From a virus, in UHGV virus genome UHGV-0207574: DNA of 16,650 bases; one strand, written 5' to 3'. A model generated the notes under the pieces. That model was given only the letters and a program-made list of their open reading frames with translations. It searched no databases and was not told the origin of the DNA. The translations under genes and the position numbers were made by a program. Shown piece after piece: positions 1-15,811 of the stretch (positions within the stretch are counted from its first letter, which is position 1; every line of letters begins with the position of its first letter).

Positions 1-73
1 GTTCACTTTAGCTCATCTCATAGCTGAAATTTTGCCGCTATTTTTTTACACTTAAGCGAAAAATGAGGTGATT

Positions 74-1009
74 ATGGAACCCCTTCGTGAAATAAGAAAT
101 CGGCTGCTTAACGGCTGGCAATTATCAAAAATGCATACTTTTGAAGTGGCTGCCAGGCATCAGTCCTTCGCCCTGGCGGCAGAGGAATTGTCGCTGAGCC
201 CCAGTGCGGTAAGTCACCGTATCAATCAGCTGGAAGAAGAATTGGGCATTCAGTTGTTTGTTCGTTCCCATCGCAAAGTGGAATTAACGCACGAGGGGAA
301 ACGTGTTTATTGGGCGCTAAAATCGTCGCTGGATACCCTGAACCAGGAAATTCTTGATATCAAAAATCAGGAGTTATCGGGAACGTTAACTCTGTATTCC
401 CGGCCCTCTATCGCCCAATGCTGGTTGGTGCCCGCATTAGGTGACTTTACACGCCGGTATCCGTCTATTTCGCTCACCGTGCTCACTGGTAATGACAACG
501 TCAATCTGCAACGTGCCGGAATCGATTTGGCGATCTACTTTGATGATGCGCCGTCAGCGCAACTCACTCATCACTTTCTGATGGATGAAGAAATCCTGCC
601 AGTATGTAGCCCGGAATACGCTCAAAGACATGCTTTAACCAACACGGTAATTAACCTGTGTCACTGTACGTTGCTCCATGACAGACAGGCATGGAGCAAC
701 GACTCCGGTACGGATGAATGGCATAGTTGGGCGCAACATTATGCGGTTAATTTGCCGACATCTTCTGGAATTGGCTTTGATCGTTCTGATTTAGCTGTTA
801 TTGCCGCGATGAATCATATTGGGGTGGCGATGGGAAGAAAACGCCTGGTACAAAAAAGGCTTGCCAGTGGTGAGCTCGTCGCGCCGTTTGGCGATATGAC
901 GGTGAAATGCCATCAGCATTATTACATCACCACATTACCGGGCAGGCAGTGGCCAAAAATTGAAGCGTTTATTATCTGGCTAAGAGAACAGGTAAAAACC
1001 ACTTCATAA
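74..1009 (+). CDS. dsdC: LysR-family transcriptional activator of D-serine utilisation (DsdC)
   Basis: The ORF track frame 68..1009 begins with GTG; the ATG at 74 follows a GAGG RBS and gives MEPLREIRNRLLNGWQLSKMHTFEVAARHQSFALAAEELSLSPSAVSHRINQLEEELG, an N-terminal LysR HTH followed by a substrate-binding domain. The sequence matches my recollection of E. coli DsdC. Stop TAA at 1007-1009. Confidence 0.88.
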   Translation: MEPLREIRNRLLNGWQLSKMHTFEVAARHQSFALAAEELSLSPSAVSHRINQLEEELGIQLFVRSHRKVELTHEGKRVYWALKSSLDTLNQEILDIKNQELSGTLTLYSRPSIAQCWLVPALGDFTRRYPSISLTVLTGNDNVNLQRAGIDLAIYFDDAPSAQLTHHFLMDEEILPVCSPEYAQRHALTNTVINLCHCTLLHDRQAWSNDSGTDEWHSWAQHYAVNLPTSSGIGFDRSDLAVIAAMNHIGVAMGRKRLVQKRLASGELVAPFGDMTVKCHQHYYITTLPGRQWPKIEAFIIWLREQVKTTS

Positions 1010-2238: not shown

Positions 2239-3066
2239 TCAAAGTGGAGGCTCTGGTAGCGGCATCCAGTGAGTTACGTCATCCAAGATATTTCCTGATA
2301 AATACGTGAAAGCTCTATATTTTTTGTAATCAATTGGATTTACAACCCAGTTCCAATATGCTGCCACGATTTCACCTTGACTAAATGCCAGTAACATTTT
2401 GGTGTCTTCCGGCATTCTCTCACTACAGCTTATCCAACCATCTGGAATTACCGGAGAGTTGCCAGATGGCTCGTTCAACTTGTAAGTTTGGCTTACAGGT
2501 TCGGCACCATGAAGCATGGCGTCGCTCCGCTCTATGCCATCCAGCGCGATTCGCAGTGCCTGAATTGTGGTAGAGCTATCGTTTGGGGCTATTCCATATC
2601 GCTCGAATACAGCTAAATGGTTGCGCATAATCTCAGGCGTAAGCTCTTTGTAAGCATAAGCAAGAGGCTCTGATGCATTATCCGGCACAACCGACGCAGG
2701 CGCGGCAGCATAAACAGGAATAACGTCCGCTTCACGAACCTGCATTGCATAGGCAACGATGTTTGCTGCGCTTGGCGTGTTCTTTGCGATCTCAGCGATA
2801 TAAGCAAAACCGCCAACAGACGCCGTTAACGATTTACGCTCCAGTTCATCGAAAAGCGTCAGGCCATCTACTGGCTTTTGCTCCCGGTGCATTCTGGTTA
2901 TTTCTTCGAAAAGGATTTTGTGTGGCCGGCTGTAAAATGAGTCAGGCTTCAGCATCGCCAGAACTTTCTGGACGCGCTCACTGCTGTCATCATCCAGAAG
3001 CAATCCACCAATCACCGCCTGCTCTGCCTCGATGCTATGGGGCGGCGCATAAAAATTATCGGTCAT
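2239..3066 (-). CDS. Chimeric replication-module protein: DnaB-helicase N-terminal domain fused to an Ead/Ea22-like region and a DUF551-like C-terminus; no helicase ATPase core
   Basis: The ATG at 3066 gives MTDNFYAPPHSIEAEQAVIGGLLLDDD ... LTASVGGFAYIAEIAKNTPSAANIVAYAMQVREA, which closely resembles the primase-interacting N-terminal domain of DnaB (PHSIEAEQ and SVGGFAY..KNTPSAANI motifs). The C-terminus (WISCSERMPEDT ... VTHWMPLPEPPL) resembles DUF551. Start overlaps the stop of the upstream O-like gene by 11 nt. Confidence 0.7.
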   Translation of the reverse strand: MTDNFYAPPHSIEAEQAVIGGLLLDDDSSERVQKVLAMLKPDSFYSRPHKILFEEITRMHREQKPVDGLTLFDELERKSLTASVGGFAYIAEIAKNTPSAANIVAYAMQVREADVIPVYAAAPASVVPDNASEPLAYAYKELTPEIMRNHLAVFERYGIAPNDSSTTIQALRIALDGIERSDAMLHGAEPVSQTYKLNEPSGNSPVIPDGWISCSERMPEDTKMLLAFSQGEIVAAYWNWVVNPIDYKKYRAFTYLSGNILDDVTHWMPLPEPPL

Positions 3067-3946
3067 CGTGTTCACCCTCACGAACTTTCAGGTAGGTATT
3101 GTCGTTAAGCAGGAAATCAAATCCCTTTTTGTGCCAGACGGTTCCGCGTTGATGGTTTGGGCGTTCTTCGAACATCCATCGGCAATTTTCGCCTACGTAG
3201 ATCAAATAATTTCTCCAGTCCTGCATCGTGAACCCATGCCCGTCAAGCTGGCGGGTTATCACTCCGGCTTTGCGCCAGAACGTTCGGATCTGGTTTTTAC
3301 GCTTGTCATTCAGTGCGCGGATTCTTGGCGCTTCAGGAAGGATTTCGTGGTAAGCATCGACAACATCCTGACAGCTGACGGAAGGTTTTTTCTTGTCAGA
3401 CTTTTTGTCTGCTGTGGCACTCTCTAATACGTCAGTATTAGAGATATTATTTATATTATTGTTTATGGACAACCGTTGGACAACCGTTGGACAATCTCCG
3501 CTGAGAGCCGCGCCATTACTGGTGTTTGCGTTGGACAACCGTTGGACAACCGTTGGACAATTTTTTGCCTGAAAATCGTCATATTTAACGATTGTAAACA
3601 GGCTAAATTTCTTCCCCATCGAGCAAATATTAAGCATCCCTTTCGACTCAAAAGTCCGTAATAAGCTCCGAACTTTGTTGTCGGGGATGAATGTTTCTCT
3701 GACCAGCGACGGGCGTCCAGTTATCATCTGACCGCGATCAACAGTTATCGGACCGATATCCGTATTGACGACAGTAGATTCGTGATTAGCCTTGAGGATT
3801 AAGTGAAGCCAAAGATGTACTGCCTGAGAGTCCTTATAGAGCCTGCTGTCCATAAACTGGCGGTGTATAGAGACATACCCCATACTGGATGCCTCCTGAT
3901 GTTGTACAGGGTTATGCCTGTAATCAGCTAACTTAACGACGCCCAT
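3056..3946 (-). CDS. Replication initiator, lambda O-like, with the origin iterons inside the gene
   Basis: 296-aa ORF with an N-terminal region resembling the phage O origin-binding domain (HLWLHLILKANHES...). A central linker is encoded by tandem 11-bp repeats, giving the duplicated peptide CPTVVQRLSN. Translationally coupled to the downstream gene. Confidence 0.7.
   Translation of the reverse strand: MGVVKLADYRHNPVQHQEASSMGYVSIHRQFMDSRLYKDSQAVHLWLHLILKANHESTVVNTDIGPITVDRGQMITGRPSLVRETFIPDNKVRSLLRTFESKGMLNICSMGKKFSLFTIVKYDDFQAKNCPTVVQRLSNANTSNGAALSGDCPTVVQRLSINNNINNISNTDVLESATADKKSDKKKPSVSCQDVVDAYHEILPEAPRIRALNDKRKNQIRTFWRKAGVITRQLDGHGFTMQDWRNYLIYVGENCRWMFEERPNHQRGTVWHKKGFDFLLNDNTYLKVREGEHDDR
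3465..3560. repeat. Putative replication origin: six iterons (unit TTGGACAACCG) in two clusters of three (3465-3496, 3531-3560)
   Basis: Direct tandem repeats seen in the sequence, lying inside the O-like gene as lambda ori lies inside O. Next to them in the gene's direction is an AT-rich tract (3440-3464) and a perfect 9-bp inverted repeat CTCTAATAC-GTCA-GTATTAGAG (3422-3443). Confidence 0.7.
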
Positions 3947-4515: not shown

Positions 4516-4614
4516 CTATTTGTTTTTCTTGTTGCTTGGGAAAGGACGAACTTCCTCTCCAATCACACTGCCATCAGGCTTTACCGTAAACGACGCTATA
4601 CAGCCAGATGGCAA
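4516..4614 (-). pseudogene. cro gene, 3' fragment only
   Basis: Minus-strand frame ending at stop 4516-4518 translates to ...CIASFTVKPDGSVIGEEVRPFPSNKKNK, matching the lambda Cro C-terminus (INADGSVYAEEVKPFPSNKKTTA). There is no N-terminal part and no in-frame start. Confidence 0.65.
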
Positions 4615-4730
4615 TCAACTGCGCAGTGCATGAGAAAAAGCCCGCTCTGATGTTCAGCCTTGAAATGCCAGGTGATCAGATACTGGAAAAACTGGTAGGG
4701 CAGAAGTCTGGTGTTAACCCGAATATTTTT
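4611..4730 (+). pseudogene. Fragment of a DnaB-family helicase core (region just after Walker A), on the plus strand
   Basis: The first ~40 codons of the ORF track frame 4608..5093 read AINCAVHEKKPALMFSLEMPGDQILEKLVGQKSGVNPNIF, resembling E. coli DnaB (AMNLCENAAMLQDKPVLIFSLEMPSEQIMMRSL). The rest of that frame looks like non-coding alt-frame sequence. Confidence 0.4.
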
Positions 4731-4759
4731 TACCTTCCGGCGACAAATGACGCTGATGA

Positions 4760-5281
4760 CGGCTACTCGGGGAAAACATCCTTTCCTGCGATACGGAGAA
4801 GAGTATCCGGGAGCGATTTTCTGTTTACCAGGTGGCGGGGCAGCGTGCCGGAAACGACGATGATTTCGGTGAGGCCACCACCACCGCGCTGCGGGCCCGC
4901 ACAGAGGACGCATTTATTGCCCGTTACCGTCCGATGTATATCAGGCAGACAGGGCAGGCTACGGGGGCAGGCTGTATTGCCCGTGCGGACTTTGAAGCCC
5001 GGCAACGGGCGGCGCGGACGGATGAAACCACCTATGTGGTGCAGGGCTGGCGACAGGGTAACGGTACGCTGTGGCAGCCCAACCAGCGGGTGATTGTCTT
5101 CGATCCGGTCTGTGGTTTCGACAATACCGAACTGCTTGTCTCGGAAGTCACGTTTACTCAGGACCAGAATGGCACCCTGACGGAAATCCGTGTCGGCCCA
5201 CCTGATGCTTATCTGCCTGAACCCGAAGCCCCCGGCGCGCGGAAAAAGAAAAAAGCCAGAGTACAGGAGGACCCGTTCTGA
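4760..5281 (+). pseudogene. 5'-truncated baseplate-hub/tail gene (Mu gp44 / P2 gpD-like), C-terminal part
   Basis: The frame is open from the stop at 4757-4759 with only a GTG at 4832 as a possible start. Its stop overlaps the start of the downstream gpV-like gene (TGATG), and position and composition match the upstream member of a Mu-type baseplate cluster. Family assignment is by position, not recognised sequence. Confidence 0.45.
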
Positions 5282-5829
5282 TGAGGACGATTGAAGCCAT
5301 GCAGCGACAACTCCTCGGCCTGATTGGGCGGGCCGTGGTGAAAAGCATCAGTGCCGCCACGAAATGTCAGACCGTGGATGTGTCCCTGATTGCCGGTGAA
5401 CCCAAAGCCGGGATTGAACATCTTGAACCCTACGGTTTTACCGCAAGGGCAAACAGCGGTGCGGAAGCGGTGGTGTTGTTTCCGGATGGCGACCGTTCTC
5501 ATGCGGTGGTTGTTACGGTGTCGGACCGGCGTTACCGCCTGAAAGGGCTGCAGACGGGTGAGGTGGCTGTCTATGACGATCAGGGGCAGTCCGTGACGCT
5601 GACCCGGGAGGGGATCGTGGTGGACGGTGCAGGTAAAACGATCACGTTTCGCAATGCGCCCAGAGCACGTTTTGAAATGGACCTGGAAGTGACCGGACAG
5701 GTGAAAGACCTGTGCGACTCCGGCGGCACCACCATGTCAGCGATGCGGCTTGCCTATAACGGGCATCGTCACAGAGAGAACGGTCAGGGCAGTAACACCG
5801 ACAAACCTGATAAAGCGATGGAGGCATGA
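5281..5829 (+). CDS. Baseplate assembly/spike protein, gpV-like (Mu gp45-like)
   Basis: 182-aa ORF, translationally coupled on both sides, GC-rich, with a C-terminal DSGGTT motif that I recall from P2 gpV-type proteins. Confidence 0.65.
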   Translation: MRTIEAMQRQLLGLIGRAVVKSISAATKCQTVDVSLIAGEPKAGIEHLEPYGFTARANSGAEAVVLFPDGDRSHAVVVTVSDRRYRLKGLQTGEVAVYDDQGQSVTLTREGIVVDGAGKTITFRNAPRARFEMDLEVTGQVKDLCDSGGTTMSAMRLAYNGHRHRENGQGSNTDKPDKAMEA

Positions 5830-6254
5830 TGGTACTGTGGCTGACGGTGAACGGTAAACGCACCTGCGCCAGCGCACCGCTGGATCCGCTGACCCGCGCC
5901 GTGGTGATTTCCCTGTTTACCTGGCGGCGGGCGGAGCCTGATGACAACGCCGACGTCCCGATGGGATGGTGGGGGGATACCTGGCCTGCGGTACAGAATG
6001 ACCGTTACGGCTCCCGGCTGTGGCTGCTTCAGCGCAGCAAACTGACCAATCAGCTGGTGCAGACGGTAAGGGGGTATATCCGCGAATGTCTGCAATGGAT
6101 GATTGATGACGGCGTGGTGTCCCGTATTGATCTGGATATCCGCCGCACCGGGATTAATGAACTGGGTAACAGTATCACTCTCTGGCGTCGTGACGGACCG
6201 GTAATGATTTCTTTTGATGATCTGTGGAGTGCGATAACGCATGGCGGACAGTGA
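5826..6254 (+). CDS. Baseplate protein, phage GP46 family (gpW-like)
   Basis: 142-aa ORF with start overlapping the upstream stop (ATGA). Size and position between the V-like and J-like genes are typical of a Mu-type baseplate cluster. Confidence 0.6.
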   Translation: MMVLWLTVNGKRTCASAPLDPLTRAVVISLFTWRRAEPDDNADVPMGWWGDTWPAVQNDRYGSRLWLLQRSKLTNQLVQTVRGYIRECLQWMIDDGVVSRIDLDIRRTGINELGNSITLWRRDGPVMISFDDLWSAITHGGQ

Positions 6255-7299
6255 ATTTCAGCGCCCGACGCTGGCAGAAAATATCAGTATGCTCCGTAAC
6301 GATTTATTCGCCAGGCTGGACGTCAGCGACACGCTCCGGCGCATGGATGAAGACGTGCGGGCAAAGGTGTATGCGGCGGCGCTGCATACGGTTTACGGGT
6401 ACATCGATTATCTGGCAATGAACATGCTGCCTGACCTGTGCGATGAGTCCTGGCTGGCGCGACATGCTGCGATGAAACGGTGTCCGCGCAAGGGGGCCAC
6501 GGCTGCCAGCGGGTATATGCGCTGGGAAGGTGTCAGCGATGGCCTGAAGGTGACCGCCGGGAGTGTTATTCAGCGCGATGACCTGGTTCAGTACACGGCA
6601 ACTGCCGATGCAACCAGCTCCGGTGGTGTCCTGCGCGTGCCGATCGCCTGCTCAAGTTCAGGCGCGGTCGGTAACGCTGACGACGGTACGTCATTAATCC
6701 TGGTCACGCCGGTGAATGGTCTGCCGTCTTCCGGTGTGGCTGACACCCTGACAGGCGGATTTGATACTGAAGATCTGGAAACGTGGCGCGCCCGCATCAT
6801 TGAGCGGTATTACTGGACGCCGCAGGGCGGGGCTGACGTGGACTATGTCGTCTGGGCTAAAGAAGTGCCCGGCATTACCCGCGCATGGACATACCGACAC
6901 TGGATGGGAACGGGGACTGTCGGTGTGATGATTGCCAGCAGTGACCTGATTAACCCCATTCCGGAAGAATCAACGGAAACGGCAGCAAGACAACATATCG
7001 GGCCACTGGCCCCGGTGGCAGGCTCTGATTTGTATGTATTCAGGCCGGTGGCGCACAAAGTGGATTTTCATATCCGCGTGACGCCGGACACACCGGAAAT
7101 ACGGGCTGCCATTACCGCAGAGTTGCGTTCATTCCTGCTGCGTGATGGTTATCCGCAGGGAGAGCTGAAGGTATCGCGTATCAGTGAAGCGATTTCCGGT
7201 GCGAACGGGGAATACAGCCATCAGTTGCTTGCTCCGGCGGACAATATCTCCATTGCAAAAAATGAACTGGCGGTTCTGGGGACGATTTCATGGACGTGA
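6241..7299 (+). CDS. Baseplate J-like protein (Mu gp47-like)
   Basis: 352-aa ORF in the conserved V-W-J-I order, overlapping its neighbours. Confidence 0.65.
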
Positions 7300-7874
7300 C
7301 AAACGATGATTACATCCGTCTGTTGTCGGCACTGCTGCCGCCCGGTCCGGCGTGGTCAGCCAGCGATCCGGCGATTGCCGGTGCGGCACCGTCATTAACT
7401 CGTGTTCATCAGCGTGCGGATGCCCTGATGCGGGAGCTGGATCCGCGCACCACCACCGAACTGATAAATCGCTGGGAGCGTCTGTGCGGCCTGCCGGATG
7501 AATGTATTCCCGCAGGGACACAGACCCTTCGCCAGCGTCAGCAACGGCTGGATGCGAAGGTTAACCTGGCGGGTGGCATCAACGAGGATTTTTATCTTGC
7601 ACAGCTTGCTGCCCTGGGCAGACCAGATGCCACCATCACGCGATACGACAAAAGCACGTTCACCTGCTCATCGGCCTGTACTGACGCTGTGAATGCGCCG
7701 GAATGGCGGTATTACTGGCAGGTCAACATGCCAGCCGCCGCCAACACCACCTGGATGACATGTGGCGATCCCTGTGATTCCGCACTGCGTATCTGGGGTG
7801 ACACCGTTGTCGAGTGTGTGCTTAACAAACTCTGCCCGTCGCATACCTACGTAATTTTTAAATATCCGGAGTAA
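7290..7874 (+). CDS. Tail protein, Mu gp48 / YmfQ-like (P2 gpI position)
   Basis: 194-aa ORF directly downstream of the J-like gene and upstream of the tail-fibre gene. Confidence 0.6.
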
Positions 7875-7877
7875 TCC

Positions 7878-8519
7878 ATGCATCGTATAGACACGAAAAC
7901 CGCGCAGAAGGATAAGTTCGGCGCGGGTAAGAACGGTTTTACCCGTGGTAACCCCCAGACCGGCACGCCTGCCACCGATCTGGATGATGACTACTTTGAC
8001 ATGTTGCAGGAGGAGCTTTGCAGCGTTGTGGAGGCCTCCGGTGCCAGCCTGGAGAAGGGGCGGCATGACCAGCTGCTTACCGCGCTTCGTGCGCTGCTGT
8101 TAAGCCGCAAGAATCCGTTTGGCGATATCAAATTGGACGGCACGGTGCAAAAGGCTCTCGAAAACCTTGGTTTGGGAGAAGCGGCTAAAAGAAATGTAGG
8201 GACAGGGGCGAATCAGATACCTGATATGGGTAGCTTCACGCTTTCTGTTTCAGGTACTGGATATCAAAAATTGCCATCCGGTTTAATTATTCAATGGGGG
8301 CCAATTGATGTTCCGCTGACGTCTCAGGACACAGTAACCTATTTTCCGATTGCATTTCCGAATAGATGTCTGCGGGTATTTGCGACTCAGGATTACACTC
8401 CCGGCAGTGCAAATGTTGGCTATATAGCTTGTGCCGGTTATAACCAGGACCCGGTGAAATTTATTTCCAGAGCAGGCGTACCCGGTCTCGGTGCTTCATT
8501 TTTCGCATTAGGGTGTTAA
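7878..8519 (+). CDS. Tail fibre protein (short; constant N-terminal part plus variable C-terminal part)
   Basis: GGAG RBS. The N-terminus [74 protein letters not shown] is the conserved tail-fibre N-terminal region of Mu/P2-type fibres. GC content drops sharply after ~8180. Confidence 0.7.
8155..8180. promoter_or_regulatory. Candidate relic serine-invertase crossover site (gix/hix-like) inside the tail-fibre gene
   Basis: CTCTCGAAAACC-TT-GGTTTGGGAGAA is an imperfect 26-bp dyad with the AAACC-NN-GGTTT core typical of Gin/Hin/Pin sites as I recall them. It lies at the constant/variable junction of the fibre and coincides with the GC drop. Confidence 0.35.
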
Positions 8520-8545
8520 TTTCTTTTAACTTTATGGAGTGAAAA

Positions 8546-8986
8546 ATGAATCACATATATTCCGCGACTACAAACTCTTTCTATCCCTTGGAGATGAAAG
8601 AGGATTACACGCAAGCTGGCTCATGGCCAGATGATGCTGTTGAAGTTGATGAGCAAGTGTATATTGAGTTTTCCGGATTACCGCCGAAAGGAAAAATCCG
8701 TATCGCTGGAGAAAATGGTTTTCCTGCATGGTCTGAAATTCCACCACCAACACATGAGGAACAGATTGCTGCAGCCGAACTGAAAAAGCAGCAATTGATT
8801 AATCAGGCCAACGATTATATGAACAGTAAACAATGGGCTGGTAAAGCGGCTATTGGTCGTCTGAAAGGTGAGGAACTGGCGCAATATAATTTGTGGCTGG
8901 ATTATCTGGACGCACTGGAGCTGGTCGATACTTCCAGTGCGCCAGATATTGAATGGCCTACTCCTCCGGCAGTTCAGGCCAGATGA
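8546..8986 (+). CDS. Tail fibre assembly protein (Tfa/U-like)
   Basis: 146-aa ORF with a GGAG RBS, ending ...SSAPDIEWPTPPAVQAR, a typical Tfa C-terminus. Immediately downstream of the tail-fibre gene. Confidence 0.7.
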   Translation: MNHIYSATTNSFYPLEMKEDYTQAGSWPDDAVEVDEQVYIEFSGLPPKGKIRIAGENGFPAWSEIPPPTHEEQIAAAELKKQQLINQANDYMNSKQWAGKAAIGRLKGEELAQYNLWLDYLDALELVDTSSAPDIEWPTPPAVQAR

Positions 8987-9260
8987 CATCCGGCGCGGTG
9001 CTGGTATCTGTTGCCGTCACCGCGTCAATGTAATCCAGCACAGTGTTAAGTCGGGAGGTCTCTGCCTGCATCAGCTTCCGCCCAGCCCGTAATTTCAGTT
9101 GAATCAGACTAATGGAAGCCATTGCAGTATCAATCAGTGACTGACGCTGTGCTTCTGCCGCGTCTACTGCGGCGTGATGCTGTGCCTCAGTATCGGTCAC
9201 CCATTTCTCACCATCCCATTTATCGTATGGCGTTAATGGGGCGATAGTCGCGGGACGCAT
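8958..9260 (-). pseudogene. Second tail fibre assembly gene (C-terminal half only), convergent with and overlapping the first
   Basis: Minus-strand frame MRPATIAPLTPYDKWDGEKWVTD...TSTAPDVIWPELPEE has a Tfa-like C-terminus. It is blocked upstream by a stop at 9318-9320, so at most ~120 codons remain. Overlaps the 3' end of the plus-strand tfa by ~29 bp. Confidence 0.5.
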
Positions 9261-9284
9261 ACAAACATAACCCCTGGATGTTAT

Positions 9285-9566
9285 GTGTCTATCGAGAATC
9301 AAAGTGGAAGTCCTTATGTTAAGTATAAGACAGGAATCACTTATAACGATAATCAGTTAGTATATGTATCTATCACTGTTGATGATAATATCAGCACTTG
9401 GTTCTGGAGGGGGTTTGTTGTGGGCAATGATGCATTTAAGTTATCGTCTGCAGATAGAGGAGATATTACAATAAACAACGAATCAGGGCATTTGATAGTC
9501 AATACCGCAATTCTATCAGGAGATATAGTCACTCTAAGAGGAGGAGAAATTAGGTTGGTATTATAG
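9285..9566 (+). other. Orphan ORF (93 codons, GTG start, no internal Met), possibly a 3' gene fragment
   Basis: VSIENQSGSPYVKYKTGITYNDNQ...DIVTLRGGEIRLVL is rich in N/T/S/V/I, like the beta-rich tip of a fibre. There is no ATG and only a weak RBS. It lies in low-GC DNA between the tfa remnant and gtrC. Confidence 0.25.
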
Positions 9567-9570
9567 CTTG

Positions 9571-9592
9571 TGCGCGCCATGATTGGCGCGCA
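9571..9592. repeat. Perfect GC-rich palindrome TGCGCGCCA-TGAT-TGGCGCGCA between the convergent stop codons of the orphan ORF and gtrC
   Basis: 9-bp perfect inverted repeat with a 4-nt loop and no adjacent T-tract on either strand. Could be a terminator-like hairpin or a protein-binding palindrome. Confidence 0.45.
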
Positions 9593-9600
9593 ATTTAAAC

Positions 9601-10932
9601 TTAGTGCTTTACATCGCTATTGTCTTGATTTCTTTGAATTATTTTATAAATTAAAAAAACGACTGTTATGTATAAGCAAAGGTCGAACGAAAAATACATT
9701 CCAAATAAATGCTTGCTTAAATCTCTATATCCTTCCCCGAAAAATGACACATAAAATTGAGATATTCCAAAAAGAGATACTACAAATAAAGATGCCTTTA
9801 TTTTATTATTTCTAATAAAAATAGAAGCAATAAAAAATAATAACAATGATATAAATCTAATGTTTTTAAATATATTGTCTTTTATGTTAGTAATAGTCGT
9901 TAGTATGTTTGATTCTCCATATATTACGTGTAGTTTTTTATATACATGGAAATAATTTTCTTTATACTGAGACATCACACCATCATCAAATGGAAGTTTG
10001 AAGATGGTGCTTGGTTTGCTAACCAATAAAAAGAGTGCATTCGAAAACGTTTCATCTTTATGAGATTCGAAACATTCCGTTCCAACTTCTGTTGGGGTTG
10101 CGCCAAATGATATGTCGAATTTATTACCCCAAGCATCTAACCCAACACACTTATCATCAACATACGATGGCATTTTATACCCGTTGTTTTTCATATAAAG
10201 ATAACTACCGAAGTATGTTGCATGGTACTTATTTAATTCAACAACACCTTTTGAATAAGATATTGCAAATATTGACGCAAGCAAGCACACCACGCATATT
10301 ACAGATTTAATAATTAGTTTGTGTCTATCAAAAAAAATATAATATGAATACACTATTAGTGGGGTTAATATAAATTGATTTTTAGCAGTAGATATTATTA
10401 GCAACGAAAAAAATAGCAAAAGCATAGATTTATTGTTTTTGCATGTTAATGAATACACCAAAAATGGAAGGAAAATTATAACTATTTGCTCTTGATAGAA
10501 TGATGCAAACATTGACAGTGTTGATGAAGAACACATAAGAAAAGCTAAAATAAAGAATGTAAATAAAGTTACATACCTTTCTGTTTTTATATATGAAGTA
10601 AATATCGCATATAATGAATAAATATATATTACTTTTAGAAATAACGATAACACCCTAGCATCAAGATATTCAGTAAAAATGCTAATAAACAGGACGTATG
10701 TATACAAAATATAACTATATGAACTTATATACTCATAGCTATCAATTGAATCAATATGACCTTTCAATTTATACAATAAAGGTAAGTCATATGTAAATGC
10801 TGGTATGTCTTCAATTAATGGCTTAATGGCTCTTCCGAAATCAGATGTATTTAACATCATTATGTTTTTAGATAAGGCGCAAATAATCAAAACAAAAGAT
10901 ATATACAATGATACTTTTATTGCTTTATTCAT
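9601..10932 (-). CDS. gtrS: Serotype-specific O-antigen glucosyltransferase, GtrC-type polytopic membrane protein (K-12 equivalent yfdI/gtrS)
   Basis: 443-aa, very AT-rich, highly hydrophobic multi-pass ORF. Third gene of a gtrA-gtrB-gtrC operon and translationally coupled to gtrB. The family is defined by position and topology rather than sequence conservation. Confidence 0.7.
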
Positions 10933-11849
10933 TTTTTGACTCTCTTGATGATGTATTTCGGGCGTTTTTTGGTTTCAATGTATGTGCGTCCAATATATTC
11001 ACCTAATACTCCTATTCCAATCATCTGAATTCCACCTAAAAACAGTATTGAAACAAGTAGTGAAGGATATCCCCTAACAGCATTTCCAAATATGATAGTA
11101 TCTAAAATCATCCACGCCCCATAAATAAATGCTACACTGGCTACCACTAACCCTATGTATGTCCAGATGCGAAGAGGGAATGTGGAAAAGCTTGTAATAC
11201 CCTCAAGTGCTAAATTCCAAAGTTTCCATCCATTAAATTTTGTATCTCCAGCAATTCTTTCCGCTCGCACGTATTCAACAATATCTGTCTTTCCTCCTAC
11301 CCAGCTCAGAATACCTTTCATGAAAAGGTTTCGTTCTGGCATAAGTTTAATATTTTCGACAACATCACGGCTCATCAGCCTGAAATCACCAACATTCTCT
11401 TCAATTTTAGGATTGCTTATTTTATTGTGGAGCTTATAGAACCACTCAGCCGTTTTTCGCTTCAGGCGTCCATCAGTTGAGCGGTCAGATCTTTTAGCAA
11501 GAACCATATCAGCACCTGCTTGCCATTTTTCAATAAGATGAGGAATAACCTCAATCGGGTCTTGCAGGTCAACATCAATTGGGATTATCGCATCCCCGGT
11601 TGCATGGTCTAACCCTGCAAACAATGCTGGTTCTTTACCAAAGTTGCGTGTAAATGACAGCGGAACAACTAGAGGATCTGAAACAGCCAGAGCATTAATG
11701 ATTGACTCCGTAGCGTCTTTGCTGCCGTCATTTATGAAAACGATTTCCACTTCATATGACTTCAATTCTTCGAATTCACGTACCGTTTTATAAAAAATTG
11801 GTATCGCTTCTTCTTCATTGAAGACAGGAACTACAAGAGATATCTTCAT
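10929..11849 (-). CDS. gtrB: Bactoprenol glucosyltransferase GtrB (GT2 family)
   Basis: 306-aa [23 protein letters not shown]...INDGSKDAT...DVDLQDP: a GT2 catalytic domain followed by C-terminal transmembrane helices, as in GtrB/YfdH. Confidence 0.85.
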
Positions 11850-12208
11850 TTCGCATCCCTAAAGACAATGAACTTTGAATAGACGAAACCGCACACCAGG
11901 CTGATGGCGGAGAAGGTGACAAGAGTTATCATCGGGGGAAGTGCGCATCTATCAGCAGCCCATCCAACAGTAGCACTCAGTGTCCCCATGAACCCAACAT
12001 ATAGCATGTAGCGCATCGTTGTAGTCGATGCCTTGAATGTGAATTTTGCATTCGCGAAGAAGCTAAAGCTCACAGCCACAACGAAACCTGCGAAGTTTGC
12101 AAGAGCTTGGTTTGTATGCGCGACATAGATACAAACACCAAAAACCACCCAGTGTATAAGGGTGTTCAGCACACCAATAGAGGTGTACTTTGCAAATAGC
12201 TTTAACAT
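11846..12208 (-). CDS. gtrA: GtrA family flippase for undecaprenyl-phosphate glucose
   Basis: 120-aa small four-helix membrane protein, first gene of the operon, overlapping gtrB by 4 nt. Confidence 0.8.
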
Positions 12209-12360
12209 TTCTTCTATCAGCTAATAATCAAAGGAATGAAGTCTATCATCCAAGTCTTAATCGATCGATACTTGCTGTGGTTGATGAGACAAAACTTATA
12301 CACACAAAGCTTTGCACTGGATTGCAAGACTTTGTGCTATTCGATAGTTGTTAAGGTCGC

Positions 12361-13518
12361 TCACTCCACCTTCTCATCAAGCCAGTCCGCCCACCATTGC
12401 ATCATTTCTCTGCGTTTATCGAGATACTGAGCATGGTTGTAAATCCCACGCACAGATCCGCCGTTTGCATGTGCCAGTTGCACTTCAATAGCGTCAGCAG
12501 GCCATTCGTGCTCGTTCATAATCGTGCTGAATTCATGCCTGAATCCGTGACCGCTTTCCAGACCCTCATAGCCGATTTGTTTGATCACAAGCAGTACCGC
12601 GTTCTCGCAGATTGGCTTCTTCTTATCGTTGCGCCCGGCAAAAACAAACTCTGAGACTGGTTTGGTGATGGAGCTTAGCGTAGTGAGAAGTTCAACTACC
12701 TGGTCTGACATAGGAACCACATGAATTTTGCGTCCTTTCATCACACTGGCGTCGATGGTGATAATCCTATTTTCAAAATCGACGTTCTTCCATAGCATGG
12801 AACGAAGCTCTTTCGTTCTTAGGGCTGTGTAGCGTAAAACTTTGGTCGCAATGAGCGATACGATACTTCCTGAAAATGTTGCCAGTGCTTTGTTGAATGC
12901 CGGGATCTGGTCTGCAGGAAGAAACGGGAAGTTCTTCTTGCGGTATCCCTTCATGGCGTCAGCAAGGTCAGGTGCCGGGTTATATTTAGCCCTTCCGGTG
13001 ACAATAGCGTAACGGAAAACCTCGCCGCATCTTCTGCGTGCTTTGTTGGCTCGTTCCATTGCACCGCGATCTTCAAACCTGCGGATTACTTCCAGCAGTT
13101 GCATCGGCTCAATATCCTGAATTTCAAGGCCGCCAATGATAGGTAAAATGTCGTCGTCAAACATTTTGGCAAGTTCAGTTGCATACCCTACTGACCATAC
13201 TTGCTTCTTGTGCTCGTACCATTCCTTGTAAATCGCACTAAAGGAATTGTTGTTAGACGAAGCCTTTTTCGCCTTTACAGGATCGATGCCAACCGAGATG
13301 TCTTTCCTCGCAGTCCATGCTTTATCCCTTGCCTCCTGCAAAGTCATAAGCGGATATTTTCCGACGGTCAGGATTTTCTCCTTACCGTCAATCTTGTAGC
13401 GAAGCTGCCATACCTTTTTCCCTGACACAGGGACATAAAGGTACAGGCCATTACCATCGAGAAGGCGGTATGGTTTTTCTTTCGGCTTTGCTGCTTCAAT
13501 CTGCTTAACGGTGAGCAT
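12361..13518 (-). CDS. intS: Tyrosine-family site-specific integrase (IntS-like)
   Basis: From the ATG at 13518 (MLTVKQIEAAKPKEKPYRLLDGNGLYLYV...) the protein has a P4-type integrase N-terminus and a C-terminal catalytic domain (...HGFRHEFSTIMNEH...GIYNHAQYL). The ORF track starts at an upstream GTG at 13554. Adjacent to the tRNA. Confidence 0.85.
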   Translation of the reverse strand: MLTVKQIEAAKPKEKPYRLLDGNGLYLYVPVSGKKVWQLRYKIDGKEKILTVGKYPLMTLQEARDKAWTARKDISVGIDPVKAKKASSNNNSFSAIYKEWYEHKKQVWSVGYATELAKMFDDDILPIIGGLEIQDIEPMQLLEVIRRFEDRGAMERANKARRRCGEVFRYAIVTGRAKYNPAPDLADAMKGYRKKNFPFLPADQIPAFNKALATFSGSIVSLIATKVLRYTALRTKELRSMLWKNVDFENRIITIDASVMKGRKIHVVPMSDQVVELLTTLSSITKPVSEFVFAGRNDKKKPICENAVLLVIKQIGYEGLESGHGFRHEFSTIMNEHEWPADAIEVQLAHANGGSVRGIYNHAQYLDKRREMMQWWADWLDEKVE

Positions 13519-13563
13519 GGGTAAAAATCCGGTGGGTAAAATTATTTTATCCACTTTTTACCC
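13519..13563. repeat. Octamer repeats GGGTAAAA (13519-13526, 13534-13541) and inverted TTTTTACCC (13555-13563) at the integrase 5' end; candidate arm-type or RDF binding sites
   Basis: Seen directly. The same motif occurs twice next to att-right (1177-1198). Confidence 0.4.
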
Positions 13564-13678: not shown

Positions 13679-13694
13679 ATGGTGTCCCCTGCAG
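13679..13694. repeat. att-left core overlapping the 3' end of argW
   Basis: ATGGTGTCCCCTGCAG, identical to 1104-1119. Confidence 0.8.
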
Positions 13695-13754
13695 GAATCG
13701 AACCTGCAATTAGCCCTTAGGAGGGGCTCGTTATATCCATTTAACTAAGAGGAC
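13680..13754 (-). tRNA. argW: tRNA-Arg (anticodon CCU)
   Basis: Minus-strand 75-nt sequence GTCCTCTTAGTTAAATGGATATAACGAGCCCCTCCTAAGGGCTAATTGCAGGTTCGATTCCTGCAGGGGACACCA. It has the acceptor stem, an anticodon loop CU-CCU-AA, a GGTTCGATTCC T-arm and an encoded CCA end. Confidence 0.9.
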
Positions 13755-13829: not shown

Positions 13830-14762
13830 TTATGCCGGGTTTTTATAATTTTTCTTAATGTTTTCCGCACGTTCTGCTTTTTGGCGTGCTTCTGCTTTAC
13901 GCTTATTGCTCATGTCGTTACGAATCTGTGCATGACTCATTAACGCGAAGATAAAGGTGCCGCCGCAGATGTTCCCCGCTAAAGTAGGTAGTGCGAAGGG
14001 CCAGATGAAATCGCTCCAGTGCAGCGTACCGTTAAACACCAGATAGAGGATTTCAACAGAACCGACCACGATATGGGTGGTGTCACCCAGGGCAATAAGC
14101 CAGGTCATCAATATAATCACCACAATCTTTGCCGCACCCGCTGCAGGAAACATCCAAACCATAGTGGCGATCAGCCAGCCGGAAATGATCGCGTTGGCAA
14201 ACATCTCGCTGGGGGTGTTCTTCATCACATCCATGCCGATTTTGACAAATGCATCGCGAGTTTCTTCATTGAAGATAGGCATATATTCAAATGCCCACGC
14301 CGCAATACCTGTCCCGAGAATATTACCCAGCAGCACGACGCCCCATAACCGTATAAGTAAGCCGACGTTGCTCATTGTCGGTTTTTGCATGACGGGTAGT
14401 ACCGCAGTCACGGTATTTTCGGTAAATAATTGCTGGCGGGCCATAATGACGATAATAAAACCAAAGGTATAACCGAGATTCTCCAGCAAGAAGCTGCCCG
14501 GCACACCTTCCAGTTCGACTTGAAATATCCCTTTTGCCAGTAACGAAGCGCCCATCGACAGACCCGCCGCAATGGCTGACCACAGTAGCGCCATTGCGTC
14601 GCGTTCCAGCTCTTTTTCACCATCCTGGCGGATATGCTCATGAATTGCCATCGCCCGGGAGGGGAGTCGGTCTTCATCTATTTCTATTTTTTTGCCGCGC
14701 TCTTTTTCTTCGCTCTCAACTTCAATTTCGTCGCTGTGTTGATCAATTTTGTCGTTGTCCAT
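13830..14762 (-). CDS. yfdC: Formate/nitrite transporter (FNT) family inner-membrane protein
   Basis: 310-aa ORF with an acidic N-terminal extension followed by a polytopic membrane core. Matches my recollection of E. coli YfdC in size and position next to argW. Confidence 0.8.
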   Translation of the reverse strand: MDNDKIDQHSDEIEVESEEKERGKKIEIDEDRLPSRAMAIHEHIRQDGEKELERDAMALLWSAIAAGLSMGASLLAKGIFQVELEGVPGSFLLENLGYTFGFIIVIMARQQLFTENTVTAVLPVMQKPTMSNVGLLIRLWGVVLLGNILGTGIAAWAFEYMPIFNEETRDAFVKIGMDVMKNTPSEMFANAIISGWLIATMVWMFPAAGAAKIVVIILMTWLIALGDTTHIVVGSVEILYLVFNGTLHWSDFIWPFALPTLAGNICGGTFIFALMSHAQIRNDMSNKRKAEARQKAERAENIKKNYKNPA

Positions 14763-15055: not shown

Positions 15056-15811
15056 ATGAAGCTTCGCCTGTCGGCGCTTGCTCTGGGAACTACGCTTCTG
15101 GTGGGGTGTGCGAGTTCCGGTACAGATCAGCAAGGGCGTTCTGACCCGTTAGAAGGGTTCAACCGCACCATGTACAACTTCAACTTCAATGTATTAGACC
15201 CGTATATTGTTCGACCGGTCGCTGTCGCCTGGCGTGATTATGTTCCGCAACCGGCGCGTAACGGTTTGAGCAACTTTACTGGCAACCTTGAAGAACCTGC
15301 GGTGATGGTTAACTACTTCTTGCAGGGCGACCCTTATCAGGGGATGGTCCACTTTACCCGCTTTTTCCTGAACACCATTTTGGGGATGGGCGGTTTTATT
15401 GATGTTGCAGGGATGGCGAACCCGAAACTGCAACGGACTGAACCTCACCGCTTCGGTAGTACGCTTGGTCATTATGGCGTGGGTTATGGGCCTTACGTTC
15501 AGTTACCGTTCTACGGTAGCTTCACGCTGCGTGATGACGGTGGTGATATGGCGGATGGTCTTTACCCGGTTCTTTCCTGGCTGACCTGGCCGATGTCTGT
15601 GGGTAAATGGACGCTTGAAGGGATCGAAACCCGCGCTCAGCTGCTGGATTCCGATGGTCTGCTGCGTCAGTCGTCCGATCCTTATATTATGGTGCGCGAA
15701 GCGTACTTCCAGCGTCATGATTTCATCGCTAATGGCGGCGAACTCAAACCGCAGGAAAATCCGAACGCACAAGCGATTCAGGATGATTTAAAAGATATTG
15801 ATTCTGAATAA
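15056..15811 (+). CDS. mlaA: Outer-membrane lipoprotein MlaA/VacJ (phospholipid asymmetry maintenance)
   Basis: AGGGAG RBS; MKLRLSALALGTTLLVGCASSG has a lipoprotein signal peptide with lipobox LVGC. 251 aa, matching my recollection of MlaA/VacJ. Confidence 0.88.
   Translation: MKLRLSALALGTTLLVGCASSGTDQQGRSDPLEGFNRTMYNFNFNVLDPYIVRPVAVAWRDYVPQPARNGLSNFTGNLEEPAVMVNYFLQGDPYQGMVHFTRFFLNTILGMGGFIDVAGMANPKLQRTEPHRFGSTLGHYGVGYGPYVQLPFYGSFTLRDDGGDMADGLYPVLSWLTWPMSVGKWTLEGIETRAQLLDSDGLLRQSSDPYIMVREAYFQRHDFIANGGELKPQENPNAQAIQDDLKDIDSE

Follow-up and report, generated by a model that had tools for sequence, protein, structure and literature searches.

In intact modules of the Pin/Gin/Cin/Hin family of invertible tail-fibre segments, a dimer of a serine invertase sits on each of two inverted 26-bp sites, and the two sites are brought together on supercoiled DNA by an enhancer that is bound by Fis and lies within the invertase gene, at its 5′ end. 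After cleavage of both sites at the central dinucleotide, the subunits rotate by 180 degrees and the segment of ~1.8 kb is inverted, so that the constant N-terminus of the fibre is now followed by a different C-terminus, which comes with an assembly chaperone of its own.

The closest described system is the P segment of prophage e14, a 1797-bp segment that PinE, PinQ, and PinR all invert at the repeats TTGGTTTGGGAGAAGG and CCTTCTCCCAAACCAA (PMC12529663, 2025). As in other Din sites, the core dinucleotide is the place of the staggered cut and of strand exchange (PMC3241671; cix annotation of the P1 record). Here we describe a 26-mer in the argW region of Escherichia coli which, with a probability that we put at about 0.93, represents the left (pixL-type) site of an invertible tail-fibre segment of this family that would have been halved by a deletion, so that the fibre is now locked. 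The window refers throughout to the whole stretch of DNA that was analysed (16.65 kb).

Results

A Pin crossover site in the tail-fibre gene

A 26-bp imperfect dyad at 8155-8180, which the earlier note had reported with the exact sequence and coordinates, lies within a fibre gene of the following organization.

7878-8519, plus strand: tail-fibre gene, 213 aa, full-length counterpart of the K-12 pseudogene yfdL
7878-8154, plus strand: constant part Sc of the fibre, upstream of the site
8155-8180, plus strand: Din-family (Pin) crossover site, 26 bp, sequence CTCTCGAAAACCTTGGTTTGGGAGAA
8167-8168, no strand: core of the site as read from the sequence, TT (AA on the opposite strand)
8181-8519, plus strand: variable part Sv of the fibre, with a gp53-like C-terminal domain (PF21882, 6.4e-18)

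The site is composed of two 12-bp half-sites, CTCTCGAAAACC and GGTTTGGGAGAA, around the 2-bp core TT, and its two 12-nt arms, as read from the sequence, match as a dyad at 9 of 12 positions. Read on the opposite strand, as TTCTCCCAAACCAAGGTTTTCGAGAG, the site agrees with pixL of e14 in 26 of 26 bases (Table 3 of PMC3241671), synonymous positions included, and the same 26-mer is the K-12 genome copy at nt 278 of e14 stfP (ycfK). Read in this orientation as TTCTCCCAAACC AA GGTTTTCGAGAG, it follows the Din consensus except for GAG in place of GAA, exactly as pixL does. The first of the two e14 repeats mentioned above has 15 of its 16 bases in common with the window site, and 18-20 of the 26 bases are shared with gix and cix.

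For scoring, the half-sites of hix, gix, cix, mix, and bix, 24 in all, were taken from Table 3 of PMC3241671 and turned into a log-odds matrix, with pix excluded against circularity. The site reaches 29.5 bits on this pix-free matrix, on which real sites score 12-31, while the next best 26-mer in the window has 14.3 bits and the best over 100 shuffles 18.2 bits. The positive controls Mu, P1, and e14 each showed exactly two sites above 25 bits and nothing else above 10. Moreover, none of 200 dinucleotide-preserving shuffles of the window contained a match to the 26-mer at three or fewer mismatches. The earlier note had proposed a gix/hix-type invertase site and was prepared to give it up if the similarity to curated sites turned out to be at background level; the similarity is far above background, and the assignment can be refined. 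The 26-mer is a genuine crossover site of the Pin/Gin/Hin family and specifically a Pin (pix) site, beyond merely resembling gix or hix: consensus and score, identity to a demonstrated site, and location at a fibre-gene junction, the three site-level hallmarks of Din-family crossover sites, are all found here.

The junction of constant and variable fibre parts

Within the fibre ORF (7878-8519), the site begins at nt 278, i.e., in codon 93 and in phase 1, close to the ~95 codons given in the earlier note. The peptides encoded across the site in four fibre genes are as follows.

Window fibre: ALENLGLGE
e14 StfP: ALENLGLGE
Mu S at gixL: FIQNLGLQE
P1 S at cixR: VIQYLGLRE

Both the codon phase and the ..NLGL.E motif are common to the window site, to gixL in Mu S, and to cixR in P1 S. 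Because the codon phase is the same across the four fibre genes, the window site is homologous in position to the classical sites, beyond mere similarity.

The site coincides with a sharp change in composition and conservation. The G/C content falls from 0.55 (7850-8149) to 0.46-0.43 (8150-8749). Identity to the window in 92 distinct 26-mer loci, among the matches listed, is 76-93% upstream of the site and drops to ~25%, i.e., to the random level, within 80 nt downstream of it. Such a collapse of identity right after the site is the expected signature of a constant/variable junction, and both the boundary and the drop in G/C content noticed before are borne out.

Among close relatives found via the constant-region protein, the exact 26-mer is present in 10 of 13 orphan copies and in 30 of 35 intact copies. 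Judged from these sequences, orphan and intact copies appear equally conserved, with no visible decay by which to date the loss, the relatives being too close. The NLGLGE motif alone could preserve much of the DNA, and conservation of the orphan copies is no proof of retained Pin binding. Coding constraint probably helps the orphan copy to persist.

An inverted relic and a deletion breakpoint

The fibre gene is followed by two assembly genes in opposite orientation, the second of which is truncated.

8546-8986, plus strand: tail-fibre assembly gene, 146 aa, cognate to the expressed Sv; yfdK homologue (PF02413, 1.9e-39)
8958-9248, minus strand: relic of an inverted alternative tail-fibre assembly gene (tfaS homologue), of which the C-terminal ~96 of 200 codons are left
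9248/9249, no strand: deletion breakpoint, at which homology to intact invertible modules ends in the alignment

The inverted relic matches Pfam Caudo_TAP (PF02413) over profile positions 34-131 only and corresponds to the K-12 pseudogene tfaS; its counterpart in strain 1409 is annotated as “missing N-terminus”. Forward gene and relic overlap tail-to-tail by 29 nt (8958-8986), and the homologous C-termini of the two assembly genes give rise to an inverted repeat (8896-8913 and 9022-9039).

In the alignment with intact relatives, the breakpoint of K-12 CPS-53 is identical to the 9248/9249 breakpoint of the window. Judged by this alignment, tfa′ has evidently lost its 5′ half, and Sv′ (the alternative fibre end), pixR (the right site), and the invertase gene have disappeared altogether. 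The deletion would have a size of at least ~1.4 kb and correspond to the right half of the module. Beyond 9248/9249 the window has instead yodE, an O-antigen glucosylation cluster of the gtrA/gtrB/yfdI type, intS, and argW.

The stretch 9287-9310 (CTATCGAGAATCAAAGTGGAAG) was considered as a degenerate half-site left by an invertase-mediated deletion and was rejected: it has no matrix score, and the real breakpoint is 9248/9249, with nothing site-like there.

Intact relatives

A search of 5426 complete E. coli genomes with window positions 6900-9650 found the whole window arrangement in only two of them, strains 1409 and ET358. In 19 further genomes of this set, the match extends exactly to query position 2349, which is window position 9248, and is followed by a different continuation. 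One of the 19, E. coli ETEC1717, is ~99% identical to the window from the site to 9248; in steps of 100 nt, identity is about 95-100% from the site to ~9254 and then 24-31%. Beyond ~9254, the inverted assembly gene is complete in ETEC1717 (603 bp) and is followed by an alternative fibre end of 546 bp, by TTCTCCCAAACCAACGTTTATGAAAA (i.e., pixR), and by pinE. Since the window retains an inverted, truncated assembly gene and near-identical modules are intact elsewhere, a deletion evidently removed half of a formerly present invertible segment in the window lineage, as far as comparison of sequences can tell. The relic or frozen switch of the earlier note thus gains support from both the inverted gene and the intact ETEC1717 module.

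Exact copies of the 26-mer were collected from at least 120 IMG/VR stretches and from eight stretches of species-representative genomes. Among the matches listed, 55 distinct loci with at least 2.7 kb downstream of the site fall into four classes.

42 loci: partner in inverted orientation 1.5-2.0 kb downstream, with a pin gene that starts ~80 bp further on
1 locus: pin gene with a variant partner
6 loci, window included: neither partner nor pin, with gtrB
6 loci: neither partner nor pin, without gtrB

Of the eight stretches from species-representative genomes, seven come from E. coli/Shigella chromosomes and one is a short contig labelled as a Bacillota MAG. This contig (L013; JAEWTL010000032.1, 5794 bp) has the exact E. 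coli-type 26-mer at 155-180 and is probably a mis-binned enterobacterial prophage contig.

Phage SKA5 has the same architecture as the ETEC1717 module with a more distant invertase. In SKA5 (L003:6178-6203) and similar IMG/VR loci (L050, L056, L131, L132), the left site is identical and the invertase is only ~56% identical to PinE; the right site of SKA5 has kept the left half-site TTCTCCCAAACCAACCTTTCAAATAT alone. SKA5-like modules may represent a second invertase lineage that uses the identical left site.

Partner site, invertase, and enhancer

In functional invertible segments, the inverted second site usually lies at a distance of 1.5-4 kb, and a small serine invertase gene adjoins the segment. 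A second full site with three or fewer mismatches is absent from both strands of the 16.65-kb window. Likewise, neither the half-site TTCTCCCAAACCAA at up to three mismatches nor the half-site matrix found any match in the window beyond the site itself, and the core AAACCNNGGTTT at up to two mismatches has six matches in the window compared to 8.9 expected, with no partner among them. With 14.3 and 12.7 bits, the two quasi-sites that rank highest in the window have the cores AC and TC, compared to TT/AA in the real site. Because these quasi-sites are within the range of the shuffles and their core dinucleotides do not match, there is no credible cryptic partner in the window. Searches with the full site, the half-site, and the matrix thus agree with the earlier note on the lack of an inverted partner.

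An invertase gene, of which the earlier note had seen none, is indeed not there: tblastn of PinE against the window returned only noise (best E 1.6), and no resolvase-family match was found in the 20 ORFs scanned, including every ORF in 5281-13554 treated as a gene. The Fis-dependent enhancer would be absent as well, given the loss of the invertase gene that carries it; in the P1 record, the enhancer is annotated within cin. Where a functional segment has two mirror-image cassettes, the window has one full cassette (8181-8986) and, as the other, 96 codons of tfa′. As partner, invertase, enhancer, and second cassette are all lacking, the locus is not a functional invertible tail-fibre segment of the G, C, P, B, or Min type.

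The surrounding prophage at argW

The window corresponds to the E. coli argW locus with a defective prophage of the CPS-53/KpLE1 type of about 12.7 kb and was identified as such by dsdC, the baseplate genes, yfdK, yodE, yfdI/H/G, intS, argW, yfdC, and mlaA. Its features outside the fibre region are listed below.

68-1009, plus strand: dsdC
between 1009 and 5281, both strands: short prophage remnants including split DnaB-like fragments
5281-7874, plus strand: Mu-type baseplate genes gp45-gp48
9420-9566, plus strand: yodE, 48 codons, GTG start (Pfam YodE, PF23504, 5e-36)
9601-12208, minus strand: glucosylation cluster of the yfdI/gtrB/gtrA type
12361-13554, minus strand: intS
13680-13754, minus strand: tRNA-Arg(CCU)
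13830-14762, minus strand: yfdC
15056-15811, plus strand: mlaA

The yodE ORF corresponds to the “toxic protein YodE” of K-12 and sits in the DNA that replaces the deleted half-segment. Between the convergent yodE and yfdI-like genes, at about 9572-9591, there is a perfect 8-bp GC-rich hairpin, GCGCGCCA-TGAT-TGGCGCGC. The yfdI-like gene (443 aa) has no Pfam match and a G/C content of 0.24-0.35 compared to about 0.55 in the baseplate genes. The whole cluster at 9601-12208, with gtrA, gtrB, and a serotype-specific type of glucosyltransferase, looks like foreign O-antigen modification cargo.

A phage helicase of the DnaB type is present as two fragments on opposite strands, 2239-3081 (minus strand; N-terminal domain) and 4608-5093 (plus strand; profile positions 214-280), of which the latter runs almost directly into the baseplate genes. 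These fragments point to rearrangement and deletion joints in the prophage that are unlike those of K-12 CPS-53 and strain 1409. Head and tail-tube genes are missing from the window prophage.

A third pixL copy in K-12

Within CPS-53, the yfdL pseudogene of K-12 contains a third, unpaired copy of pixL (minus strand, about 2471883-2471908 of NC_000913.3). This copy is identical in sequence to the pixL of e14 and lies inverted relative to it, at a distance of about 1.26 Mb; the e14 sites used for this comparison are L001:4779-4804 and L001:6606-6631. The same genome also holds pinE, pinQ, and pinR. The kind of site and system is textbook knowledge; no description of the orphan site in CPS-53-type elements or in K-12 yfdL was found in the literature open to search. 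The third copy is relevant to recent work on e14, in which the action of Pin enzymes in trans was shown to alter the sensitivity to phages.

Discussion

Homology to the intact modules suggests that the window copy may once have inverted like its relatives. In the course of events that we propose, a deletion ending at 9248/9249 would have deprived the inverted chaperone gene of its 5′ half and removed the alternative fibre end along with the right site and the invertase gene. With one site left and neither enhancer nor enzyme in cis, the segment would be incapable of inverting, and the fibre would be locked as Sc-Sv of the yfdL type, with YfdK as its chaperone. As the truncated state is identical in the window and in K-12 CPS-53, the truncation would predate the divergence of the two lineages. 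The site itself may owe its survival to its place in the reading frame (..ALENLGLGE..) and to the probably young age of the element relative to the intact relatives. The frozen switch is an ordinary relic of a well-known system and implies no new mechanism; host range is moot, since the prophage is defective and lacks the head and tail-tube genes.

Alternatively, the orphan site might still be active, i.e., Pin-type invertases of other prophages (PinE, PinQ, PinR, and others) might recombine it in trans, either with a pix site in another prophage, leading to megabase inversions or swaps of fibre cassettes, or with a nearby quasi-site. The earlier note had kept a similar way out, an invertase from another prophage acting on a cryptic partner. 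Pin paralogues do work in trans on the e14 segment (PMC12529663), and for a prophage of EC958 that still inverts despite its truncated invertase, the authors suggest another enzyme in trans (PMC4134206). Furthermore, K-12 CPS-53 holds the identical site in inverted orientation relative to e14 pixL, along with three pin genes, and the fibre region is matched at five places in strain 1409. However, the junction diagnostic of such an event between CPS-53 and e14, for which the yfdM-yfdL′ constant part, the site, and the StfP variable part were joined as a query, was found at a coverage of at least 80% in none of the 5426 complete E. coli genomes, and probing with CPS-53 revealed inversions only in e14 (PMC12529663). 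It is also well established that wild-type enzymes of the family require inverted sites within a single supercoiled domain as well as an enhancer in cis, and the quasi-sites offer only 14.3 and 12.7 bits, in the shuffle range, with cores that do not match. For the proviso of the earlier note, neither a credible partner in the window nor a sign of recombination in trans in the 5426 genomes was found, and we regard an orphan site that is still active as very unlikely.

Equally improbable is that orphan pixL copies, such as those of the window, of CPS-53 in K-12, and of Shigella Sf phages, occasionally synapse with a pix site of another prophage in cells that express Pin. If they did, fibre and chaperone cassettes would be swapped between prophages, given the near identity of the constant fibre parts, and the chromosomal stretch between the prophages would be inverted; orphan sites would then act as hidden drivers of both large inversions and the exchange of fibre cassettes.

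Hardly any weight is left for an origin without inversion history, in which the 26-mer would be the DNA image of a conserved peptide (..ALENLGLGE..) joining fibre modules and its likeness to invertase sites coincidental or a product of module shuffling by homologous recombination: the site is in frame, its motif recurs in the very dissimilar fibres Mu S and P1 S, and diversity is even lower in some other 26-nt windows of the constant region (pi of 0.002-0.011 compared to 0.022 at the site), but this reading is at odds with the complete identity to pixL even at synonymous positions and with a third-position diversity of 0.031 at the site versus 0.076-0.234 in the seven preceding 26-nt windows, leaves the adjoining inverted, truncated chaperone gene unexplained without a former invertible segment, and has to face relatives that are ~99% identical over site, Sv, tfa, and tfa′ and carry the full segment, pixR, and pinE, as well as a pin gene at the expected place in 43 of the 55 loci with the 26-mer among the matches listed.

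The preferred reading, a Pin segment halved by deletion, would be of use for annotation, as it explains the sharp mosaic boundary of the short fibre gene, the backwards assembly-gene fragment behind it, and the fixed fibre of CPS-53/Sf-type elements in contrast to their switching e14-type relatives.

Comparison with known systems

The P segment of e14 (stfP-tfaP-tfaE-stfE-pinE) is the system to which the window is most readily compared. Its 26-bp site is identical to that of the window and likewise located at nt 278, codon 93, in the same phase; the constant part of the fibre is ~90-100% identical in the last 200 nt, and Mu gp47/gp48-like (YmfQ) baseplate genes lie upstream in both. Even the convergent overlap of 29 nt between tfaP and tfaE (L001:5518-5546) has its equivalent in the window pair. 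In contrast to the window, which lacks all four, e14 retains full tfaE, stfE′, pixR, and pinE, and it inverts. Moreover, the variable cassette of the window is unlike that of e14 StfP, and the window element resides at argW with a gtr cluster, whereas e14 resides at icd.

CPS-53 (KpLE1) of K-12, with the order yfdL′-yfdK-tfaS′-yodE-yfdI/H/G-intS-argW, shares the chromosomal locus and gene order of the window, the orphan site (L004:7884-7909, minus strand), and the tfa′ breakpoint. It has lost the first ~40 fibre codons and everything upstream, where yfdM is fused, whereas in the window the fibre ORF is complete and the baseplate genes gp45-gp48 are present.

Two other K-12 loci, pinR of Rac and pinQ of Qin, are likewise decayed remnants of fibre-inversion modules. 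They represent the reverse kind of orphan, with the invertase gene kept and the site missing: in the 12-kb stretches that hold stfR-tfaR-pinR and pinQ-tfaQ-stfQ, no site scored above 11.1 bits.

The G segment of Mu (gix/Gin) and the C segment of P1 (cix/Cin) have the same order as the intact relatives of the window, i.e., constant fibre part, site, Sv, U, inverted U′, inverted Sv′, site, and invertase. Mu, P1, and the window also share the peptide (I/L)(Q/E)(N/Y)LGL.E across the site in the same codon phase. The systems differ in the subfamily member of the invertase, which is Pin for the window type and Gin or Cin for Mu and P1, and in fibre length (213 aa in the window compared to 504 aa in Mu and 987 aa in P1), and unlike the Mu G and P1 C segments, the window system is truncated and non-functional.

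The serotype-converting Shigella phage SfIV, with a Mu-like tail, a gtr cluster, and int, carries the exact 26-mer in its fibre gene, followed by a forward tfa, an inverted and truncated tfa′, and then gtrC/B/A and int, without an invertase. Its tfa′ retains aa 30-199 and is followed by an IS element, so that the truncation point differs from that of the window. As the SfIV record is a complete phage genome from S. flexneri, the orphan site also occurs in a full-length phage genome.
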